This document shows positions 3,418 to 15,110 of a stretch of 26,517 nt of DNA, piece by piece. The notes under the pieces were generated by a model. That model was not told the origin of the DNA. It ran no database searches and saw nothing but the letters and a program-made list of their open reading frames with translations. Source of the DNA: a virus (Duplodnaviria > Heunggongvirae > Uroviricota > Caudoviricetes); IMG/VR virus record IMGVR_UViG_2778261459_000001, positions 1 to 26,517 of that record; one strand, given 5' to 3'. Positions within the stretch are counted from its first letter, which is position 1, and each line of letters begins with the position of its first letter. The position numbers and the translations under genes are program-made.

Positions 3418-3633
3418 ATGAAATCCATGGATAAGTTAACAACGGGTGTCGCCTATGGTACCTCAGCAGGTAGTGCCGGGTACTGGTTTTTACAGTTGCT
3501 CGATAAAGTCACGCCCTCACAGTGGGCGGCAATAGGTGTGCTGGGTAGCCTGGTATTTGGCCTGCTGACGTACCTGACAAACCTTTATTTCAAGATTAAA
3601 GAAGATAAGCGCAAGGCTGCGAGAGGTGAATAA
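3418..3633 (+). CDS. essD: class II holin / pinholin (phage 21 S-type)
   Basis: 71 aa, [31 protein letters not shown]...[32 protein letters not shown]: two hydrophobic segments and a charged C-terminus; resembles the S21 pinholin / DLP12 EssD from memory. SD GAGGTGGGG precedes the start. Confidence 0.9.
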
Positions 3634-4130
3634 TGCCTCCATCATTACGAAAAGCCGTTGCTGCTGCTATTGGTGGCGGAGCAATTGCTATAGCATCAGT
3701 GTTAATCACTGGCCCAAGTGGTAACGATGGTCTGGAAGGTGTCAGCTACATACCATACAAAGATATTGTTGGTGTATGGACTGTATGTCACGGGCATACA
3801 GGAAAAGACATCATGCTCGGTAAAACGTATACCAAAGCAGAATGCAAAGCACTCTTGAATAAAGACCTTGCCACTGTCGCCAGACAAATTAACCCGTACA
3901 TCACAGTCGATATACCGGAAACAACGCGCGGCGCTCTTTACTCGTTCGTCTACAACGTGGGTGCTGGCAATTTCAGAACATCGACGCTTCTTCGCAAAAT
4001 AAACCAGGGTGATATTAAAGGCGCATGTGATCAGCTACGGCGCTGGACATACGCTGGCGGTAATCAATGGAAAGGACTGATGACTCGCCGTGAGATTGAG
4101 CGTGAAGTCTGTTTGTGGGGGAAACAATGA
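3633..4130 (+). CDS. rrrD: SAR (signal-arrest-release) endolysin, lysozyme family
   Basis: 165 aa. N-terminal Gly/Ala-rich weakly hydrophobic segment ([20 protein letters not shown]) typical of SAR domains, followed by a lysozyme-like core. Start overlaps the holin stop. Confidence 0.9.
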
Positions 4131-4588
4131 GCAGAGTAACCGCGATTATCTCCGCTCTGGTTATCTGCATCATCGTCTGCCTGTCATTGGCTGTTAATCA
4201 TTACCGCGATAACGCCATTACCTACAAAGCCCAGCGCGACAAAAATGCCAGAGAACTGAAGCTGGCGAACTCGACAATTACTGACATGCAGATGCGTCAG
4301 CGTGATGTTGCTGCGCTCGATGCAAAATACACGAAGGAGTTAGCTGATGCGAAAGCTGAAAATGATGCTCTGCGTGATGATGTTGCCGCTGGTCGTCGTC
4401 GGTTGCACATCAAAGCAGTCTGTCAGTCAGTGCGTGAAGCCACCACCGCCTCCGGCGTGGATAATGCAGCCTCCCCCCGACTGGCAGACACCGCTGAACG
4501 GGATTATTTCACCCTCAGAGAGAGGCTGATCACTATGCAAAAACAACTGGAAGGAACCCAGAAGTATATTAATGAGCAGTGCAGATAG
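4127..4588 (+). CDS. rzpD: i-spanin Rz (inner membrane spanin subunit)
   Basis: ATG 4127 overlaps the endolysin stop (ATGA). N-terminal TM segment ([20 protein letters not shown]), then a charged coiled-coil-like periplasmic domain. Confidence 0.85.
4347..4529 (+). CDS. rzoD: o-spanin Rz1 lipoprotein, embedded in the +1 frame of Rz
   Basis: 60 aa, [24 protein letters not shown]...[15 protein letters not shown]...: lipobox VVGC and a proline-rich mature part, entirely inside the Rz gene in another frame. Confidence 0.85.
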
Positions 4589-4619
4589 CGCTGCCCATAT
4601 CGATGGGCAACTCATGCAA

Positions 4620-4913
4620 TTATTGTGAGCAATACACCCGCGCTTCCAGCGGAGTATAAATGCCTAAAGTAATAAAACCGAGCAATCCATTTACGAATGT
4701 TTGCTGGGTTTCTGTTTTAACCACATTTTCTGCGCCGCCACAAATTTTGGCTGCATCAACAGTTTTCTCCTGTCCAATTCCCGAAACGAAGAAATGATGG
4801 GTGATGGTTTCCTTTGGTGTTACTGCTGTCGGTTTGTTTCCAACAGTAAACGTCTGTTGAGCACATCCTGTAATAAGCATTGCCAGAGCGGCAGAAAACA
4901 ACATTTTTTTCAT
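4620..4913 (-). CDS. borD: Bor lipoprotein (serum-resistance lysogenic conversion protein)
   Basis: 97 aa from ATG 4913: MKKMLFSAALAMLITGCAQQTF... (lipobox LITGC). Opposite strand to the late operon, as in lambda. Track ORF 4620..4961 includes an unlikely upstream extension. Confidence 0.9.
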   Translation of the reverse strand: MKKMLFSAALAMLITGCAQQTFTVGNKPTAVTPKETITHHFFVSGIGQEKTVDAAKICGGAENVVKTETQQTFVNGLLGFITLGIYTPLEARVYCSQ

Positions 4914-5093
4914 CTTATTATCCTGCATTGTTAAAAACGGCAGAATCCTATGTGACAACAATTAAACGATAGTTAAATGGATTGATGAAAATTAAAACTA
5001 TATAGGTGTACGGTCAGACTATTGGAGGTAGTCAGGATTTGAATGTCAGTCTGTTGTCGGCATTCTGGCAATGCAATTTGGATAAAGCGGGGA

Positions 5094-5216
5094 TTAAAAA
5101 GATAGAGGCGAGCCGGTCAGGTAGAAATGAATCAGGCTCAAAGTGAAGCGGAAAAGGTCTGTGGTACAAGCTGATGCAGCCATAATTACAGCCTGATGAT
5201 TTGTGGAATGAAACAT
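5094..5216 (-). CDS. hypothetical 40-aa peptide with canonical Shine-Dalgarno (MFHSTNHQAVIMAASACTTDLFRFTLSLIHFYLTGSPLSF)
   Basis: Minus-strand ATG 5216..5214 is preceded by AGGAGG (plus-strand CCTCCT 5223-5228) at 6 nt spacing; stop at 5096..5094. Below the track cut-off. No homology recognised. Confidence 0.3.
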   Translation of the reverse strand: MFHSTNHQAVIMAASACTTDLFRFTLSLIHFYLTGSPLSF

Positions 5217-5438
5217 GTTGAACCTCCTTAATTGATGTTATTCGAGTGATGAAGGCATTCTGTCCTTCTATAGTGTCCAGTAAATCAAACAGGAAACTTG
5301 TCCAACGTGTTGGACAAGCCTCTCCATTAGTGAGTTGTATTGATCACAACTCTACAAAGAATTCATTACTGGGTAGATGAAAATAGTTTCACGATGAATG
5401 GAGGAGGCTATGTCGGTGGCTTCTTCATTGGAGTACAT

Positions 5439-5789
5439 ATGCCATCACGAATCCCAAAAGCCTGCCGTGTTCGTGGCTGCCGCCATACCACCACAGACCC
5501 GTCAGGCTATTGTGAAAGCCACAAAAGCGAAGGCTGGAAGCAATACAAGCCAGGACAATCCCGTCATCAGCGCGGTTATGGTTCGAAGTGGGATGTTATC
5601 CGCGTGCGTGTGTTGAAGCGTGACAAAGGCCTGTGTCAGTTATGTCTGCGTGCTGGTGTGGTGCGTGAGGCGAAAACCGTTGACCACATCATCCCTAAAG
5701 CGCATGGCGGCACTGATGCCGACTGTAATCTGCAGAGTCTGTGCTGGCCGTGTCATAAGGCGAAGACGGCCCGTGAACGACTTAAGTGA
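5439..5789 (+). CDS. HNH endonuclease (packaging-associated, HK97 gp74-like position)
   Basis: GGAG 7 nt upstream of ATG 5439. Translation contains CxxC...CxxC and H-N-H elements (CQLCLRAG...VDHIIPKAHGG...NLQSLCWPCH). Sits immediately upstream of the terminase small subunit. Confidence 0.85.
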   Translation: MPSRIPKACRVRGCRHTTTDPSGYCESHKSEGWKQYKPGQSRHQRGYGSKWDVIRVRVLKRDKGLCQLCLRAGVVREAKTVDHIIPKAHGGTDADCNLQSLCWPCHKAKTARERLK

Positions 5790-5815
5790 TAATAATTCTC
5801 AACTGTCTGAGGGGA

Positions 5816-5877
5816 GGGGCGGGTCAAATCTCTGTGACCTGACGTCTTCCGGACTGCCCGCCCCATCGTTTTTTTAT
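5816..5877 (+). terminator. GGGGCGGG...CCCGCCCC stem with a 33-nt loop followed by T7 run; terminator-like, or part of a cos region
   Basis: 8-bp GC stem (5816-5823 / 5857-5864), then ATCGTTTTTTTAT, between the HNH and terS genes. Confidence 0.3.
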
Positions 5878-5914
5878 ACCCGCGAAAAATGAAATTTAAC
5901 CAGGAGTGCCGCAT

Positions 5915-6400
5915 ATGGCTGGAACGGCGGGGCGTTCCGGGCGTCGCCCCAAGCCAACGGCGCGCAAGGCGCTGGCCGGAAACCCCGGCAAGCGAGCCCT
6001 GAACAAAGATGAACCTGTTTTTACGCCCATCAAAGGTGTTGAGCCACCGGAGTGGTTCGCTGAAGAAGATCTCCCTCTCGCCACGATCATGTGGCAACTG
6101 ACAACCAAAGAACTCTGCGGTCAGGGCCTGCTGTGCGTGACTGACCTGGCGGTACTTGAGCGGTGGTGTGTGGCCTATGAATTCTGGCGACGTGCCGTGA
6201 AAAATATTGCCAGACAGGGCAACACCATCACCGGTGCAATGGGCGGCATGGTCAAAAATCCGGAGCTGACCGCCAAAAAAGAACAGGAGTCCGAGATGAG
6301 CAGCACGGGGGCAATGCTCGGACTCGACCCCAGCAGCCGCCAGCGTCTGATTGGCCTGGCGGGGAAGAAGAAAGCCACTAACCCGTTTCTGACAATCTGA
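5915..6400 (+). CDS. terminase small subunit (P27-family-like)
   Basis: SD CAGGAG 8 nt before ATG 5915. N-terminal motif [29 protein letters not shown] is characteristic of this small-subunit family. Immediately upstream of the large subunit. Confidence 0.85.
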
Positions 6401-6413
6401 AAATCATCGAATC

Positions 6414-8147
6414 ATGAGCCGGAAATCTTACCCCAACGTAAATGCAGCCAATCAGTATGCCCGTGATGTCGTGCGCGGAAAGATTGTGGCCTGCCAGTTT
6501 GTGATTCAGGCCTGCCAGCGCCATCTTGATGACCTGATGGCGGAAAAAAGTAAGTCGTTTCGTTACCGCTTCGACAAGGACCTGGCTGAACGGGCCGCCA
6601 AATTTATTCAGCTGTTGCCGCATACCAAGGGTGAGTGGGCATTCAAACGGATGCCCATCACGCTGGAGCCGTGGCAGCTCTTTGTGATCTGCTGTGCGTT
6701 TGGCTGGGTCAATAAAGGTACCCGGCTGCGCCGCTTCCGGGAGGTGTATACCGAAATCCCCCGTAAGAACGGCAAATCGGCAATCTCTGCCGGTGTCGCC
6801 CTGTATTGTTTTGCCTGTGATAACGAGTTTGGCGCGGAAGTGTATTCCGGTGCCACGACAGAGAAACAGGCGTGGGAAGTCTTTCGCCCGGCGCGACTGA
6901 TGTGTAAACGCACACCCATGCTGACGGAAGCGTTCGGGATTGAGGTTAACGCCTCAAACATGAACCGTCCGGAGGATGGCGCGCGGTTTGAACCGCTGAT
7001 CGGTAACCCCGGTGATGGATCATCACCCCACTGTGCGGTGGTGGATGAATATCACGAGCACGCCACCGATGCGCTTTACACCACGATGCTTACCGGGATG
7101 GGGGCGCGACGTCAGCCACTGATGTGGGCCATTACTACTGCCGGGTACAACATTGAGGGGCCGTGCTACGACAAGCGGCGGGAAGTCATCGAGATGCTCA
7201 ACGGCTCGGTGCCTAACGATGAACTGTTCGGGATCATCTATACCGTTGATGAAGGTGACGACTGGACCGACCCGCAGGTGCTGGAAAAAGCCAATCCAAA
7301 TATTGGCGTGTCGGTTTATCGCGAATTTTTGTTAAGTCAGCAGCAGCGTGCGAAAAATAACGCCCGTCTGGCAAACGTCTTTAAAACAAAACACCTCAAT
7401 ATCTGGGTGTCGGCGCGTTCGGCGTATTTCAACCTGGTGAGCTGGCAGAGCTGCGAGGATAAATCACTGACCCTTGAGCAGTTCGAGGGGCAGCCGTGCA
7501 TTCTGGCCTTTGATCTGGCGCGTAAGCTGGATATGAACAGCATGGCGCGACTTTATACCCGCGAGATTGACGGTAAAACGCATTACTACAGTGTGGCCCC
7601 GCGCTTCTGGGTACCGTATGACACGGTGTACAGCGTCGAGAAAAATGAAGATAGACGGACAGCCGAACGCTTTCAGAAATGGGTGGAAATGGGCGTCCTG
7701 ACCGTTACCGATGGTGCAGAGGTGGATTATCGCTACATCCTCGAGGAGGCCAAAGCAGCGAACAAAATCAGCCCGGTCAGTGAGTCACCCATCGACCCCT
7801 TCGGGGCGACCGGGTTGTCACATGACCTTGCTGATGAAGACCTGAACCCCATCACTATCATTCAGAACTACACCAACATGTCCGACCCGATGAAAGAGCT
7901 GGAAGCGGCAATTGAATCGGGGCGCTTTCATCATGATGGCAATCCCATCATGACCTGGTGTATCGGCAACGTGGTCGGCAAAACCATTCCGGGTAACGAT
8001 GATGTGGTGAAGCCCGTCAAAGAGCAGGCGGAAAACAAAATCGATGGTGCAGTTGCGCTGATTATGGCGGTTGGCAGAGCCATGCTGTACGAGAAAGAAG
8101 ACACGTTGTCTGACCACATTGAGTCCTATGGGATCCGCTCGCTTTAA
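6414..8147 (+). CDS. terminase large subunit
   Basis: 577-aa ORF following terS; size, position and overall character match large terminase of HK97-like phages. Confidence 0.9.
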
Positions 8148-9582: not shown

Positions 9583-10210
9583 TGTACCGCTGAGTCTGAA
9601 ATCTGTCAGTGACTCCGGTGAGTTTGAAGGGTATGGCTCCGTCTTTGGTGTAAAGGACAGCCACGATGATGTGGTGATGTCCGGGGCATTTGCTGCTTCC
9701 CTGCGGGCGTGGAGTGACAGAAAAGCGTTACCTGCGCTGCTCTGGCAGCACCGCATGGATGAACCCATCGGTGTTTACACCGAAATGAAGGAAGACGATG
9801 TCGGGCTTTACGTCAGGGGGCGGTTGCTCATTGATGATGATCCCCTGGCAAAACGCGCACATGCACACATGAAGGCCGGTTCGTTAACCGGCCTTTCTAT
9901 TGGGTACGTCCTGAAGGACTGGGAATACGACCGGACGAAAGAAGCCTTTCTGCTGAAAGAAATCGACCTCTGGGAAGTCAGTCTGGTGACGTTTCCGTCT
10001 AACGACGAGGCGCGGATCAGCGACGTCAAGAACGCGCTGGCCCGCGGGGAAATCCCCGAACAGAAAAAAATCGAAAGAGTCCTGCGTGATGTCGGACTCT
10101 CCCGTACCCAGGCCAAAGCATTCATGGCCGGGGGCTATGGCGCACTGTCCCTGCGCGACGCTGAGGATGTGGGCTCTGCACTGAATGCACTGAAAAATCT
10201 GAACTTCTAA
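9560..10210 (+). CDS. prohead maturation protease (HK97 family, peptidase U35-like)
   Basis: AAGGA SD 8 nt before ATG 9560, overlapping the portal 3' end; between portal and capsid genes. The track's 9524 start is an alternative. Confidence 0.85.
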   Translation: MQTKQRLDVPLSLKSVSDSGEFEGYGSVFGVKDSHDDVVMSGAFAASLRAWSDRKALPALLWQHRMDEPIGVYTEMKEDDVGLYVRGRLLIDDDPLAKRAHAHMKAGSLTGLSIGYVLKDWEYDRTKEAFLLKEIDLWEVSLVTFPSNDEARISDVKNALARGEIPEQKKIERVLRDVGLSRTQAKAFMAGGYGALSLRDAEDVGSALNALKNLNF

Positions 10211-12413: not shown

Positions 12414-12894
12414 TTTTCAGCAGCCCGCGGAGATGCGCTTTAACCGCGCCCGTGTCCGGCGGGCGTTTGTCACGATTGGTCAGCGTCATATGCGTGATGC
12501 CCGTCGGCTGGTGATGCGCCGTGCGCGGTCGGCACCGGGTGAAAACCCCGGTTATCAGACCGGACGCCTGGCTCGTTCGATTGGTTACATGGTACCCAGA
12601 GCCAGTAAACATCGCCCTGGTTTTATGGCACGTATAGCCCCTAACCAGCGTAATGGAGAGGGAAACCGCCGTATCACCGGTGATTTTTATCCGGCTTTTT
12701 TGTTCTATGGCGTGAGGCGAGGGGCAAAGCGTCGTCGCAGCCATCATCGTGGCGCATCCGGTGGCAGCGGCTGGCGACTGGCTCCACGTAATAACTTCAT
12801 GGTGGAAACGCTTGAAAAGAACCGCAGCTGGACACGCTATTTTCTGGCGCGGGAATTGCGTAAATCACTGAAGCCGGAGCGACGACACAGATGA
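12388..12894 (+). CDS. HK97 gp10-like morphogenesis protein, Arg-rich
   Basis: GGAGG 7 nt before ATG 12388. Basic, Arg-rich 168-aa protein in the head-to-tail joining region. Confidence 0.65.
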   Translation: MTTSFLHVDFQQPAEMRFNRARVRRAFVTIGQRHMRDARRLVMRRARSAPGENPGYQTGRLARSIGYMVPRASKHRPGFMARIAPNQRNGEGNRRITGDFYPAFLFYGVRRGAKRRRSHHRGASGGSGWRLAPRNNFMVETLEKNRSWTRYFLARELRKSLKPERRHR

Positions 12895-13630: not shown

Positions 13631-15110
13631 CACCATTCCGTCGAATACGCTGGTTCCGCTGTTTTATGCGGAAATGGATAACCAGGCGGCGAATACTGCA
13701 CAGGACAGCGGAGCATCGCTGCTGATTGGTCATGCCAATAACGGTGCAGAGATTGTTGCCAACAGTCTGGTACTGATGCCGTCGGCAGACTATGCACGCC
13801 AGATTTGTGGTGCGGGAAGTCAGCTGGCGCGTATGGTCGAGGCTTATCGCCAGACTGACCCGTTTGGCGAGCTGTATGTGATTGCCGTTCCTGAATCCAC
13901 AGGCGCGGCGGCAACGGTTACGCTGACGGTGACCGGGGAAGCAACCGAAAGCGGCACGGTGAATGTCTATGTGGGACGTACCCGCGTGCAGGCTCCGGTG
14001 ACCAACGGCGATAACGTCACGACGATTGCCAGCAGTATCCAGGATGCCATCAATGCCGTTCCGGCCCTGCCGTTTACAGCTTCATCTTCGGCTGGTGTTG
14101 TCACGCTGACCGCGCGTCATAAGGGGCTTTGCGGGAATGAAATTCCTGTCAGCCTCAATTACTACGGCTTCGGTGGGGGTGAAGTGCTGCCTGCGGGCGT
14201 ACAGATTGCCGTGGCGACGGGGACCGCCGGAACGGGCGCTCCGGTTCTCACCGGCGCGGTGGCTGCAATGGCGGATGAGCCGTTTGATTATATCGGTCTG
14301 CCGTTCAACGACACGGCCTCCGTTAACACGCTGGTGACCGAGATGAACGATACCAGCGGTCGCTGGAGCTATGCGCGTCAGCTGTATGGTCATGTGTATA
14401 CGGCAAAGACCGGTACGCTGTCAGAACTGGTGACCGCAGGTGACCAGTTTAACCAGCAGCACATTACCCTGGCGGGGTACGAAAAAGAGACCCAGACGCC
14501 TGCCGACGAGCTGGCGGCAAGCCGTACCGCCCGCGCAGCGGTGTTTATTCGCAACGATCCGGCACGTCCCACGCAGACCGGTGAGCTGGTGGGTATGCTG
14601 CCTGCGCCGAAGGGGAAACGGTTCACGATGACTGAACAACAGACCCTGTTGTCTCATGGCGTGGCAACGGCGTATGTCGAAAGCGGGGTACTGCGCATTC
14701 AGCGTGATGTCACCACGTACAGGAAAAACGCTTACGGGGTTGCGGATAACAGCTACCTCGACAGTGAGACGCTGCATACCAGCGCGTATGTACTGCGCAA
14801 ACTGAAATCCGTCATTACCAGTAAGTACGGGCGTCACAAGCTTGCCAGTGACGGTACCCGCTTTGGTCCCGGTCAGGCAATTGTCACCCCGGCGGTGATC
14901 AAAGGGGAACTGCTGGCAACCTACCGTCAGCTTGAGCGTGCGGGGATCGTGGAAAACTACGAACTGTTTAAGCAGTACCTGGTTGTGGAGCGTGATGCCA
15001 GCGATCCGAACCGTCTGAACACGCTGTTCCCGCCTGACTATGTTAACCAGTTGCGTGTCTTTGCCGTGGTTAACCAGTTCCGTCTTCAGTATTCAGAGGA
15101 GTCCGCATAA
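13614..15110 (+). CDS. contractile tail sheath protein (Mu gpL-like)
   Basis: 498 aa; size and position before the tube gene; start MTISFNTIPSNTLVPLFYAEMDN... is typical of Mu-like sheath proteins. Confidence 0.9.
   Translation: MTISFNTIPSNTLVPLFYAEMDNQAANTAQDSGASLLIGHANNGAEIVANSLVLMPSADYARQICGAGSQLARMVEAYRQTDPFGELYVIAVPESTGAAATVTLTVTGEATESGTVNVYVGRTRVQAPVTNGDNVTTIASSIQDAINAVPALPFTASSSAGVVTLTARHKGLCGNEIPVSLNYYGFGGGEVLPAGVQIAVATGTAGTGAPVLTGAVAAMADEPFDYIGLPFNDTASVNTLVTEMNDTSGRWSYARQLYGHVYTAKTGTLSELVTAGDQFNQQHITLAGYEKETQTPADELAASRTARAAVFIRNDPARPTQTGELVGMLPAPKGKRFTMTEQQTLLSHGVATAYVESGVLRIQRDVTTYRKNAYGVADNSYLDSETLHTSAYVLRKLKSVITSKYGRHKLASDGTRFGPGQAIVTPAVIKGELLATYRQLERAGIVENYELFKQYLVVERDASDPNRLNTLFPPDYVNQLRVFAVVNQFRLQYSEESA

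Follow-up and report, generated by a model that had tools for sequence, protein, structure and literature searches.

The stretch of DNA analysed here, which we call the window, comprises 26,517 nt of IMG/VR virus record IMGVR_UViG_2778261459_000001, and Pfam matches together with the annotation of homologous loci identify it as the late region of an Escherichia coli lambdoid prophage. Our subject is the 386-bp interval between the lipoprotein gene bor and the gene of an HNH endonuclease, where an insertion of about 320 bp carries a 40-codon open reading frame (ORF), here called ORF40, a perfect palindrome, and two predicted promoters for the single-subunit RNA polymerases (RNAPs) of virulent phages (Table 1). 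The original prediction, made from the letters of the window alone, drew attention to bor, to ORF40 with its AGGAGG-N6-ATG start and to the palindrome, and all three lie where it placed them. It also held that the interval is free of larger ORFs, and we find none of 60 aa or more between bor and the HNH start at 5439, a 149-aa ORF at 5340..5789 being an in-frame upstream extension of HNH. What it missed are the two phage-RNAP promoters that flank the hairpin formed by the palindrome, and these are the key to the region. Judged by its sequence, the insertion is a small accessory element, or ‘moron’, whose predicted promoters are those of the single-subunit RNAPs of virulent Autographiviridae and not bacterial ones.

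Table 1. Features of the cassette, followed by the surrounding genes of the window (MFE, minimum free energy).
Feature	Position	Strand	Remarks
Inserted cassette	5118..5437	minus	Extent relative to phages without the cassette; boundaries good to ~15 nt
T7-group (Berlinvirus-type) single-subunit RNAP promoter, -17..+6	5342..5320	minus	CAATACAACTCACTAATGGAGAG; predicted start G5325
RNA hairpin	5293..5322	minus	13 pairs including G-U extensions; -18.3 kcal/mol, z = -3.6 (fold)
Palindrome, 10+2+10	5297..5318		CTTGTCCAAC-GT-GTTGGACAAG; arms 100% complementary
SP6/K1E-type single-subunit RNAP promoter, -17..+6	5263..5285	minus	Matches K1E promoters; predicted start G5268
5' stem-loop GAAGG-N8-CCUUC	5251..5268	minus	From predicted +1 of the SP6/K1E-type promoter; MFE fold of 5268..5214
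Shine-Dalgarno AGGAGG	5228..5223	minus	6-nt spacer to ATG; read directly
ORF40, 40 codons	5216..5094	minus	MFHSTNHQAVIMAASACTTDLFRFTLSLIHFYLTGSPLSF; ATG 5216..5214, stop TAA 5096..5094
lysC (P2-type o-spanin) 3'-end remnant	5006..5146	plus	Aligns to C-terminus of SfIV and L1PEag1 LysC
bor/iss lipoprotein, 97 aa from ATG at 4913	4620..4913	minus	Pfam Lambda_Bor E=6e-31
HNH endonuclease, HK97-type packaging module	5439..5789	plus	Pfam HNH E=5e-15; homologous-locus annotation
Q antiterminator	1160-1558
Porin, 380 aa	1747-2889	minus	Pfam Porin_1 E=2e-151; between Q antiterminator and holin gene
Holin S	3418-3633
Endolysin R	3633-4130
Rz + Rz1	4115-4588		Complete lambda-type pair; functional spanins of the window
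P27-type small terminase	5906-6400
Large terminase	6414-8147
Head and tail genes	3' of large terminase
Acyl_transf_3 protein, 360 aa	24426-25508	minus	Downstream of tail genes

Both promoters are recognised by their identity to phage promoters and by the rarity of such matches. In the upstream site, CAATACAACTCACTAATGG (-17 to +2) is identical to the promoter annotated at 12530 in Erwinia phage FE44, a Berlinvirus, and the first 19 bases of the site together with two flanking bases recur as a 21-nt exact match in PYPS50 and P694. The match is to the Berlinvirus variant (CACTAATGG); the T7 consensus itself gives no match to the site within 3 mismatches. In the downstream site, ATTTACTGGACACTATAGAAG (5285..5265) agrees at 21 of 21 positions with the K1E promoters at 13925, 15932 and 24431, one of which is the promoter of the major capsid gene, and a K1E-type site was met with in none of 100 shuffles. 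We scored the window with position weight matrices built from ten promoters each of K1E and FE44, against a background of 729,000 positions, and each site falls within the range of the phage's own promoters. With the K1E matrix the site reaches 35.1 bits (K1E's own promoters, 27.5-36.5; next best in the window, 12.6; background maximum, 14.5), and with the FE44 matrix the upstream site reaches 28.0 bits (FE44's own, 26.7-37.0; next best in the window, 8.6; background maximum, 14.1). The two stand in tandem with their starts 57 nt apart, both aimed at ORF40. In diverged alleles of the cassette, about 14% different, the specificity positions differ while the scores stay promoter-grade, at 24 bits or above, and the allele of SfIV has an SP6-type site in place of the K1E-type one (31.2 bits with an SP6 matrix). 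By sequence, then, both are phage-RNAP promoters, and we infer that they would fire in vivo. A third promoter mimic was not found in 5338-5440, a segment without similarity to virulent phages.

The leader that follows the second promoter is likewise of a phage kind. It runs from the GAAGG..CCUUC stem-loop through an unstructured spacer to TAAGGAGGTT and ORF40, and the same kind of +1 stem-loop is found in the K1E capsid leader and in FE44 late leaders. Taken alone, this stem-loop is no better than shuffled sequence (z = -0.75). The window itself encodes no single-subunit RNAP, its largest ORF being 611 aa against the RNAP genes of about 880 codons in FE44 and K1E.

Between the promoters, the hairpin begins no more than 3 nt from the predicted start G5325 and stops 8 nt short of the second promoter; late FE44 leaders, like the T7 phi10 leader, also open with a stem-loop of this sort. 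The palindrome alone proves little, because the window has three perfect palindromes with 10-nt arms, at 2053, 5297 and 9872; the other two are CATATTCTGA/TCAGAATATG in the porin gene region (2053-2075) and AAGGCCGGTT/AACCGGCCTT in the head-gene region (9872-9895). The identity of the middle one with a phage element is seen in comparison with SP6-like phages. It has the form of the Molineuxvirinae hairpins, (C)TTGTC(C/T)(A/C)AC-NN-GT(T/G)(G/A)GACAA with a perfect stem. SP6 has at least nine copies of this element, which the window core matches. The core is identical to TTGTCCAAC-NN-GTTGGACAA, present at least six times in Klebsiella phage S16a, with a 24/24-nt blastn match. E. coli cassette alleles carry either a GTCCAAC or a GTCTCAC version, and the six copies in K1E, TTGTCTCAC-NN-GTGAGACA, equal the allele that the window does not have. 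A promoter lies 3-15 nt downstream of the hairpin in three copies each in K1E and SP6 and in one copy in S16a, as it does in the window, where the spacing is 11 nt against 3-14 nt in K1E and SP6. Hairpin and promoter together align, as one block of 51-58 nt, to SP6-like phages at 77-83%. In those phages the perfect palindromes of about 22 bp are intergenic, and lineages differ by paired changes (GTCCAAC/GTTGGAC versus GTCTCAC/GTGAGAC).

Relatives of the window keep the palindrome, and its arms still pair although both have changed. In a set of 16 alleles the paired cells amount to 89%, versus 32-47% with the partner slid, and five pairs have substitutions in both arms; some of this covariation may be due to separate capture from different phages, not to compensatory change in place. 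The palindrome is best read as a hairpin in minus-strand RNA, because its G-U pairs work only on that strand and because a terminator scan picks it up (13 pairs, 5 G-C). The tail, CUGUUUGAUU, is interrupted and weak, its U run being partly used in the stem extension. Of the two roles first proposed for the palindrome, a prophage-specific operator does not fit a hairpin that SP6-like phages carry in many copies, while a minus-strand terminator retains some footing in the RNA hairpin that the scan reports.

ORF40 is the only constant element downstream of the cassette promoters. A 40-codon ORF alone is unremarkable by chance, and it is the comparison with relatives that raises both ORF40 and the palindrome above chance. 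We examined about 110 copies, of 65 distinct sequences, taken from genomes and IMG/VR contigs, and the frame, its length and the Shine-Dalgarno are retained in all of them; frameshifted or read-through variants are few and rare among database proteins. TAAGGAGGTT stands 5 or 6 nt before the ATG in 72 of the 110, and the K1E capsid-gene leader carries the same TAAGGAGGTT Shine-Dalgarno context. Codons 20-40 differ between the window and SfIV by three synonymous changes and no non-synonymous one, and over all alleles the C-terminal half has 12 distinct changes, of which 10 are synonymous (binomial P about 4e-5). Between E. coli and a Klebsiella homologue described below, the last 15 codons differ by five synonymous changes and none that is non-synonymous. 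The excess of synonymous change that marks a coding gene is thus present in the C-terminal half and absent from codons 1-19 (5216..5160), where the window and SfIV differ by 15 non-synonymous versus 2 synonymous changes (proportions per site pN 0.34 and pS 0.15), a pattern of either relaxed constraint or diversifying selection in numbers too small to decide between them. Together with the intact frame, whose conservation in related prophages had been proposed as a check, the pattern of change supports ORF40 as a real, selected coding sequence.

The predicted peptide is also hydrophobic, as had been proposed, with a grand average of hydropathy (GRAVY) that is moderate in E. coli (0.61) and high in Klebsiella (1.26), where it contains a 19-residue hydrophobic stretch. 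That the frame is unannotated holds for the genomes listed, none of which has a Prokaryotic Genome Annotation Pipeline (PGAP) annotation at the cassette spot unless a lysC gene lies there, but ORF40 does appear as a hypothetical protein in one phage record (URC10065.1), and a few database entries exist. Annotation pipelines miss the cassette because it has no sigma-70 promoter and its ORF has only 40 codons.

Comparison with SfV delimits the cassette. From the lysC stop to the HNH start there are 26 nt in SfV versus about 320 bp in SfIV and in the window, and homology to SfV picks up again near 5117 and at the HNH start codon; ORF40 and the palindrome are therefore parts of a discrete insertion, at the junction of the lysis cassette and the packaging genes. 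As expected of a moron, it is a block present in SfIV and absent from SfV between conserved flanking genes. We found it in 632 of 5426 complete E. coli genomes (~12%), beside varied neighbours, and 406 of 633 E. coli cassette records are at least 99% identical. HNH, on the opposite strand, is the upstream neighbour and lies outside the cassette. The two are not tied to each other, given that the palindrome and ORF40 are absent beside HNH relatives of other genera in all 56 loci retrieved, from many genera. In a few IMG/VR contigs (6 loci) unrelated DNA, and not the HNH start, lies upstream, so the cassette has also been joined to other E. coli packaging modules. In some E. coli prophages (6 loci) the promoter part is duplicated in tandem over about 290 bp and joined to the opening ~60 nt of HNH; the duplicate keeps both promoter mimics and a perfect hairpin, with its Shine-Dalgarno and ATG changed (ACGGAGC...ACG), and four phage-type promoters thus stand before one ORF.

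On the downstream side, bor is the next minus-strand gene in the window prophage, but it is not a constant partner. It follows on the same strand, 180 nt past ORF40, in most E. coli copies (56 of about 95 copies grouped by downstream sequence), and SfIV-type and Klebsiella prophages have the cassette without it. No hairpin terminator was found downstream of ORF40, and no sigma-70-like promoter was found on either strand of 4400-5900 by a simple scan that misses the bor promoter too. The promoter and terminator of its own that a moron would have are thus not seen in the cassette, as far as so simple a sigma-70 scan can tell. An Rfam scan of 4300-6100 at a permissive E-value returned chance-level eukaryotic matches only.

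A parallel cassette is found in Klebsiella pneumoniae, with promoters matched to the phages of that host. A protein search recovered a 38-aa homologue of ORF40 in 563 blocks of the collection, with an unrelated N-terminus and the same last 15 residues, LSLIHFYLTGSPLSF. The slot is the same, on the opposite strand at the junction of the lysis cassette and the packaging genes, with varied neighbours and no HNH, and the array has a first promoter site with at least three alleles, a GTCCAAC hairpin, an S16a-like promoter site and the 38-aa ORF, in that order. Allele 1 of the first site resembles the promoters of KP32-like Przondovirus phages (33 nt at 94%, with 11-13 sites per phage genome), and Klebsiella phages make up 347 of the 361 matches. 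Allele 2 agrees at 20 of 20 nt with the phiOR promoter of the Berlinvirus coliphage BA14, and allele 3 matches other Klebsiella phages of about 40 kb. The site after the hairpin resembles the S16a promoter, AAT(A/T)GTGGCGAGTATAGAAC. The start of the ORF is preserved as AAAGGAG, 5 nt and ATG, so that Shine-Dalgarno and start codon are kept in E. coli and Klebsiella despite unrelated surrounding sequence.

Two more promoter-like strings, TTTAATGTTACACGAGTAGGAACAG and AAGTTACACAATAGAAATCAG, lie between the S16a-type promoter and the Klebsiella ORF and may be mimics for further phage groups. The first agrees at 21 of 22 nt with a site directly after the RNAP gene of the Drulisvirus KpV41, a weak match (E about 9) that overlaps the ribosome-binding site and start codon of KpV41, and we leave a KP34/Drulisvirus promoter mimic unproven. 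A second perfect palindrome, TTGTCTCTTATAAGAGACAA, lies upstream of the first Klebsiella promoter mimic, with no U tract after it on either strand. In seven Klebsiella copies a 125-aa gene (MNLNTLNYLIKNAEE...) follows 3' of the cassette on the same strand, and transcripts of a phage polymerase would therefore cover it too.

These features suggest a unit that is triggered by a phage RNAP and expresses a small membrane peptide for abortive infection or exclusion, a reading on which we find ourselves evenly divided. In the uninfected lysogen the cassette would be silent for want of a sigma-70 promoter, and stray host transcription might also be stopped by the hairpin and its U-rich tail. An infecting phage of the T7 group (Berlinvirus type) or the SP6 group (K1E/Vectrevirus type) would make its own polymerase, which would start at G5325 and/or G5268 on the minus strand. 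The transcripts would carry a stabilising 5' stem-loop and the strong Shine-Dalgarno typical of the late genes of those phages, and ORF40 would be translated at a high level, with the conserved C-terminal 15-21 residues as its active part. The peptide would then harm the membrane or another essential function, so that the infection aborts or the phage is excluded. Toxicity or membrane activity of the peptide, and defence as the outcome, are what its size, hydrophobicity and setting lead us to infer; most plausibly, a hydrophobic peptide of 38-40 residues made upon infection would have the membrane as its target and abort or exclude the infection. The original prediction had offered a toxin or an exclusion peptide, and it is the exclusion peptide that fits this context best.

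A broader form of this reading, which we advance tentatively and with somewhat less than even confidence, is that lambdoid prophages of E. coli and Klebsiella hold an infection sensor in which an array of promoter mimics drives one tiny, conserved, toxic peptide. With the same reserve, the mimics may each be tuned to the polymerase of another group among the virulent Autographiviridae of the host, T7-like, SP6-like and possibly KP34-like. If so, no protein sensor would be involved, phage-specific transcription would itself be the trigger, and promoter alleles would evolve in an arms race with polymerase specificities.

Several observations weigh against a phage-triggered toxic peptide. The peptide belongs to no family in Pfam, PHROGs or PADLOC searches, and three ORF40 variants had no match to PADLOC defence models at E up to 10. 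Its N-terminal half is not under purifying selection and is unrelated in Klebsiella, which leaves about 15 residues demonstrably constrained, and the moderately hydrophobic E. coli peptide contains Arg, Asp and His. The hairpin and U-rich tail lie between the first promoter and ORF40 and could terminate part of the T7-type transcripts. As no terminator follows ORF40, transcripts would run on into bor or antisense into the lysis genes, and the true payload could therefore be something other than the ORF40 peptide. The homology of the hairpin-promoter block to SP6-like phages implies capture from such a phage, and capture alone is no proof of use. Promoters of the capsid type, which are late promoters, may also fire too late to abort an infection.

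Four other explanations have to be weighed, and taken together we hold them to be not far short of an even chance. The one that survives best, though we consider it unlikely, is that the cassette is a neutral relic, an SP6-like hairpin-promoter block and a T7-like promoter brought in by illegitimate recombination during mixed infections, functionless and with ORF40 a by-product. The block alignment to SP6-like phages is what such an origin would leave. The E. coli copies are little diverged, and their conservation is therefore in part a matter of recent common descent. The segment 5338-5440 and ORF40 are without similarity to virulent phages. However, any one virulent phage uses a single promoter specificity, so that two or three in tandem cannot stem from one capture; virulent-phage promoters also run with the genes, whereas those of the cassette are antisense to lysC. 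Decay is not what separates the diverged alleles, which have switched to another natural specificity and remain promoter-grade, and the Klebsiella counterpart has Klebsiella-phage promoters before a homologous ORF. ORF40 is never disrupted in the copies examined, and its C-terminal half has the synonymous-only pattern. In our view the promoters are probably used and not left over, because two or three specificities stand in tandem and antisense to neighbouring phage genes, because they are always aimed at the same small selected ORF, and because diverged alleles stay promoter-grade, SfIV has switched from K1E to SP6 type, and promoter types change with host genus, the Klebsiella cassette carrying promoters of Klebsiella phages.

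It is also conceivable, if a little less likely still, that the prophage hijacks the incoming polymerase for another purpose, expressing cargo such as bor, other genes or possibly leftward early genes, or an antisense RNA to the lysis genes, with ORF40 a mere leader or stabilising ORF. The want of a terminator after ORF40, the place of bor in most E. coli copies and that of the 125-aa gene in seven Klebsiella copies would all suit such a role, as would the dependence on T7-like phages that Chen and Schneider reportedly saw in enterobacterial islands with T7-like promoters in tandem. Yet ORF40 is the sole constant downstream element, SfIV-type and several Klebsiella contexts hold only antisense lysis genes on that side, and the ORF40 peptide sequence is under a purifying selection that a leader ORF would not need. 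A variant in which the antisense RNA acts against the spanin genes of the infecting phage was rejected, as the region of ORF40 and the lysC remnant has no nucleotide similarity to virulent phages.

The original prediction named small toxins of the type I toxin-antitoxin kind among its possibilities, and a host-expressed small membrane toxin, or a lysogenic-conversion peptide, with the palindrome as operator or insulating terminator and the phage-type promoters incidental, is in our view less probable again. A short ORF for a hydrophobic peptide, preceded by a strong Shine-Dalgarno and placed beside bor in a slot typical of morons, has the look of such a gene, and the hairpin and U-rich tail do score as an intrinsic terminator on the minus strand. 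The layout of a type I system was nevertheless not borne out: the simple scan of 4400-5900 found a sigma-70-like promoter neither for ORF40 nor for an antisense RNA, and there is no match to an Rfam family and no similarity to a known toxin. The palindrome is a multi-copy element of SP6-like genomes and not a unique operator, and the promoter matches are too good and too consistently placed to be incidental. Finally, that ORF40 is not a gene and owes its conservation to the shadow of lysC on the other strand is very improbable. Its last ~17 codons do lie over the 3' end of lysC, and the invariant stretch of the peptide begins near the lysC stop. In the overlap, however, ORF40 has synonymous changes (5 to 0) where lysC has non-synonymous ones (1 to 5). 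Most cassette hosts, the window included, retain no more of lysC than a dead remnant, and E. coli and Klebsiella share the Shine-Dalgarno and ATG amid unrelated sequence. The LysC C-terminus also differs in SfV, which is without the cassette, so that the overlapped tail must have arrived with it; on this substitution pattern and the SfV comparison we rejected the idea.

The reading of a phage-triggered peptide has partial precedents. Chen and Schneider are said to have described, in 2006, tandem T7-like promoters, two or three to a cluster, in prophage-like islands of enterobacterial genomes without the polymerase gene. These islands, reportedly of 4-13 kb with promoters over 150-620 bp and two to five proteins, were reportedly read as dependent on infecting T7-like phages. 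Beside those islands, with which the present loci may overlap, our unit is an insert of about 320 bp that complete lambdoid prophages carry where lysis and packaging genes meet, its two promoters separated by 57 nt and followed by one ORF of 40 codons. A review ties the sit prophage of CFT073 to that paper, but that prophage has neither promoter mimic nor cassette. Our search of the full-text literature, which did not cover the 2006 text of Chen and Schneider, found no report in which phage-polymerase promoters drive a conserved micro-ORF of a prophage, and none on the hairpin or on host-matched alleles.

The cassette resembles the lambdoid morons bor and lom of lambda in being a discrete insertion between two late-region genes, in the slot that bor also occupies and on the strand opposite to its neighbours. 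Classical morons, with their sigma-70 promoter and terminator, are active in the repressed prophage; in the cassette, by contrast, the promoters are those of phage polymerases, no sigma-70 promoter is detectable, and a downstream terminator is lacking. The T7 phi10 leader begins with a stem-loop, and with its 23-bp promoter, +1 stem-loop, unstructured spacer and strong TAAGGAGGTT the cassette is built like such late leaders of the T7 and SP6 groups (T7 phi10, K1E gene 31). It differs from them in lying in temperate prophages of siphovirus or myovirus type without a single-subunit polymerase, in combining two polymerase specificities, and in encoding a 40-aa peptide unrelated to the proteins of those phages.

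In tying expression to a factor that only an infecting phage supplies, the cassette would be like the late promoters of P4, which use P2 Ogr, and like lactococcal AbiD1. Those systems respond to a transcription or translation activator working with the host polymerase, whereas in the cassette the promoter would itself do the sensing, through direct recognition by the phage polymerase. AbiD1 is named in the title of PMC2661086. The peptide shares with type I toxins (Hok, Ldr, TisB, Ibs/ShoB) a length of 38-40 aa, hydrophobicity and a strong ribosome-binding site, and is plausibly membrane-active as well; unlike them, ORF40 has no antisense RNA gene, no sigma-70 promoter of its own and no sequence similarity that we could find.

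If our reading is true, an abortive-infection or exclusion device of about 320 bp would work with no protein sensor, its specificity residing in promoters of about 20 bp that a few substitutions could re-tune. It would explain why a tiny, unannotated insert occurs in some 12% of complete E. coli genomes and widely among the prophages of K. pneumoniae, and it would bear on the failure of therapeutic phages of the T7, K1E and KP32 types on particular lysogens. ‘Promoter mimicry’ would then join the ways in which bacteria and prophages detect phages.

The bor-HNH interval is itself a mosaic. Lambda-type sequence upstream of bor occupies 4960-5032, with 94% identity to lambda and relatives, and 5027-5344 has 86-90% identity with SfIV-type phages, which have no bor and carry a P2-type lysB/lysC spanin pair instead. 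The lysC remnant, which overlaps the last ~17 codons of ORF40 in antisense, reaches 19.4 bits with Pfam LysC against a cut-off of 27 and covers profile positions 35-68 only, with no N-terminal part; it is thus not the full-length lipoprotein, with signal peptide and lipobox, that an o-spanin would be, and we regard it as non-functional in the window. Because this dead fragment survives beside a complete Rz/Rz1 pair, the lysis cassette has evidently been exchanged by recombination, with a junction near 5027-5032, and the promoter-bearing insertion appears to have been left in place. A bor gene identical to that of the window is named ‘iss’ by PGAP. Elsewhere in the window, the acyltransferase gene probably encodes an O-antigen acetyltransferase (serotype conversion), which fits an SfV/SfIV-like prophage, and the porin gene at 1747-2889, on the opposite strand, is a typical lysogenic-conversion moron.

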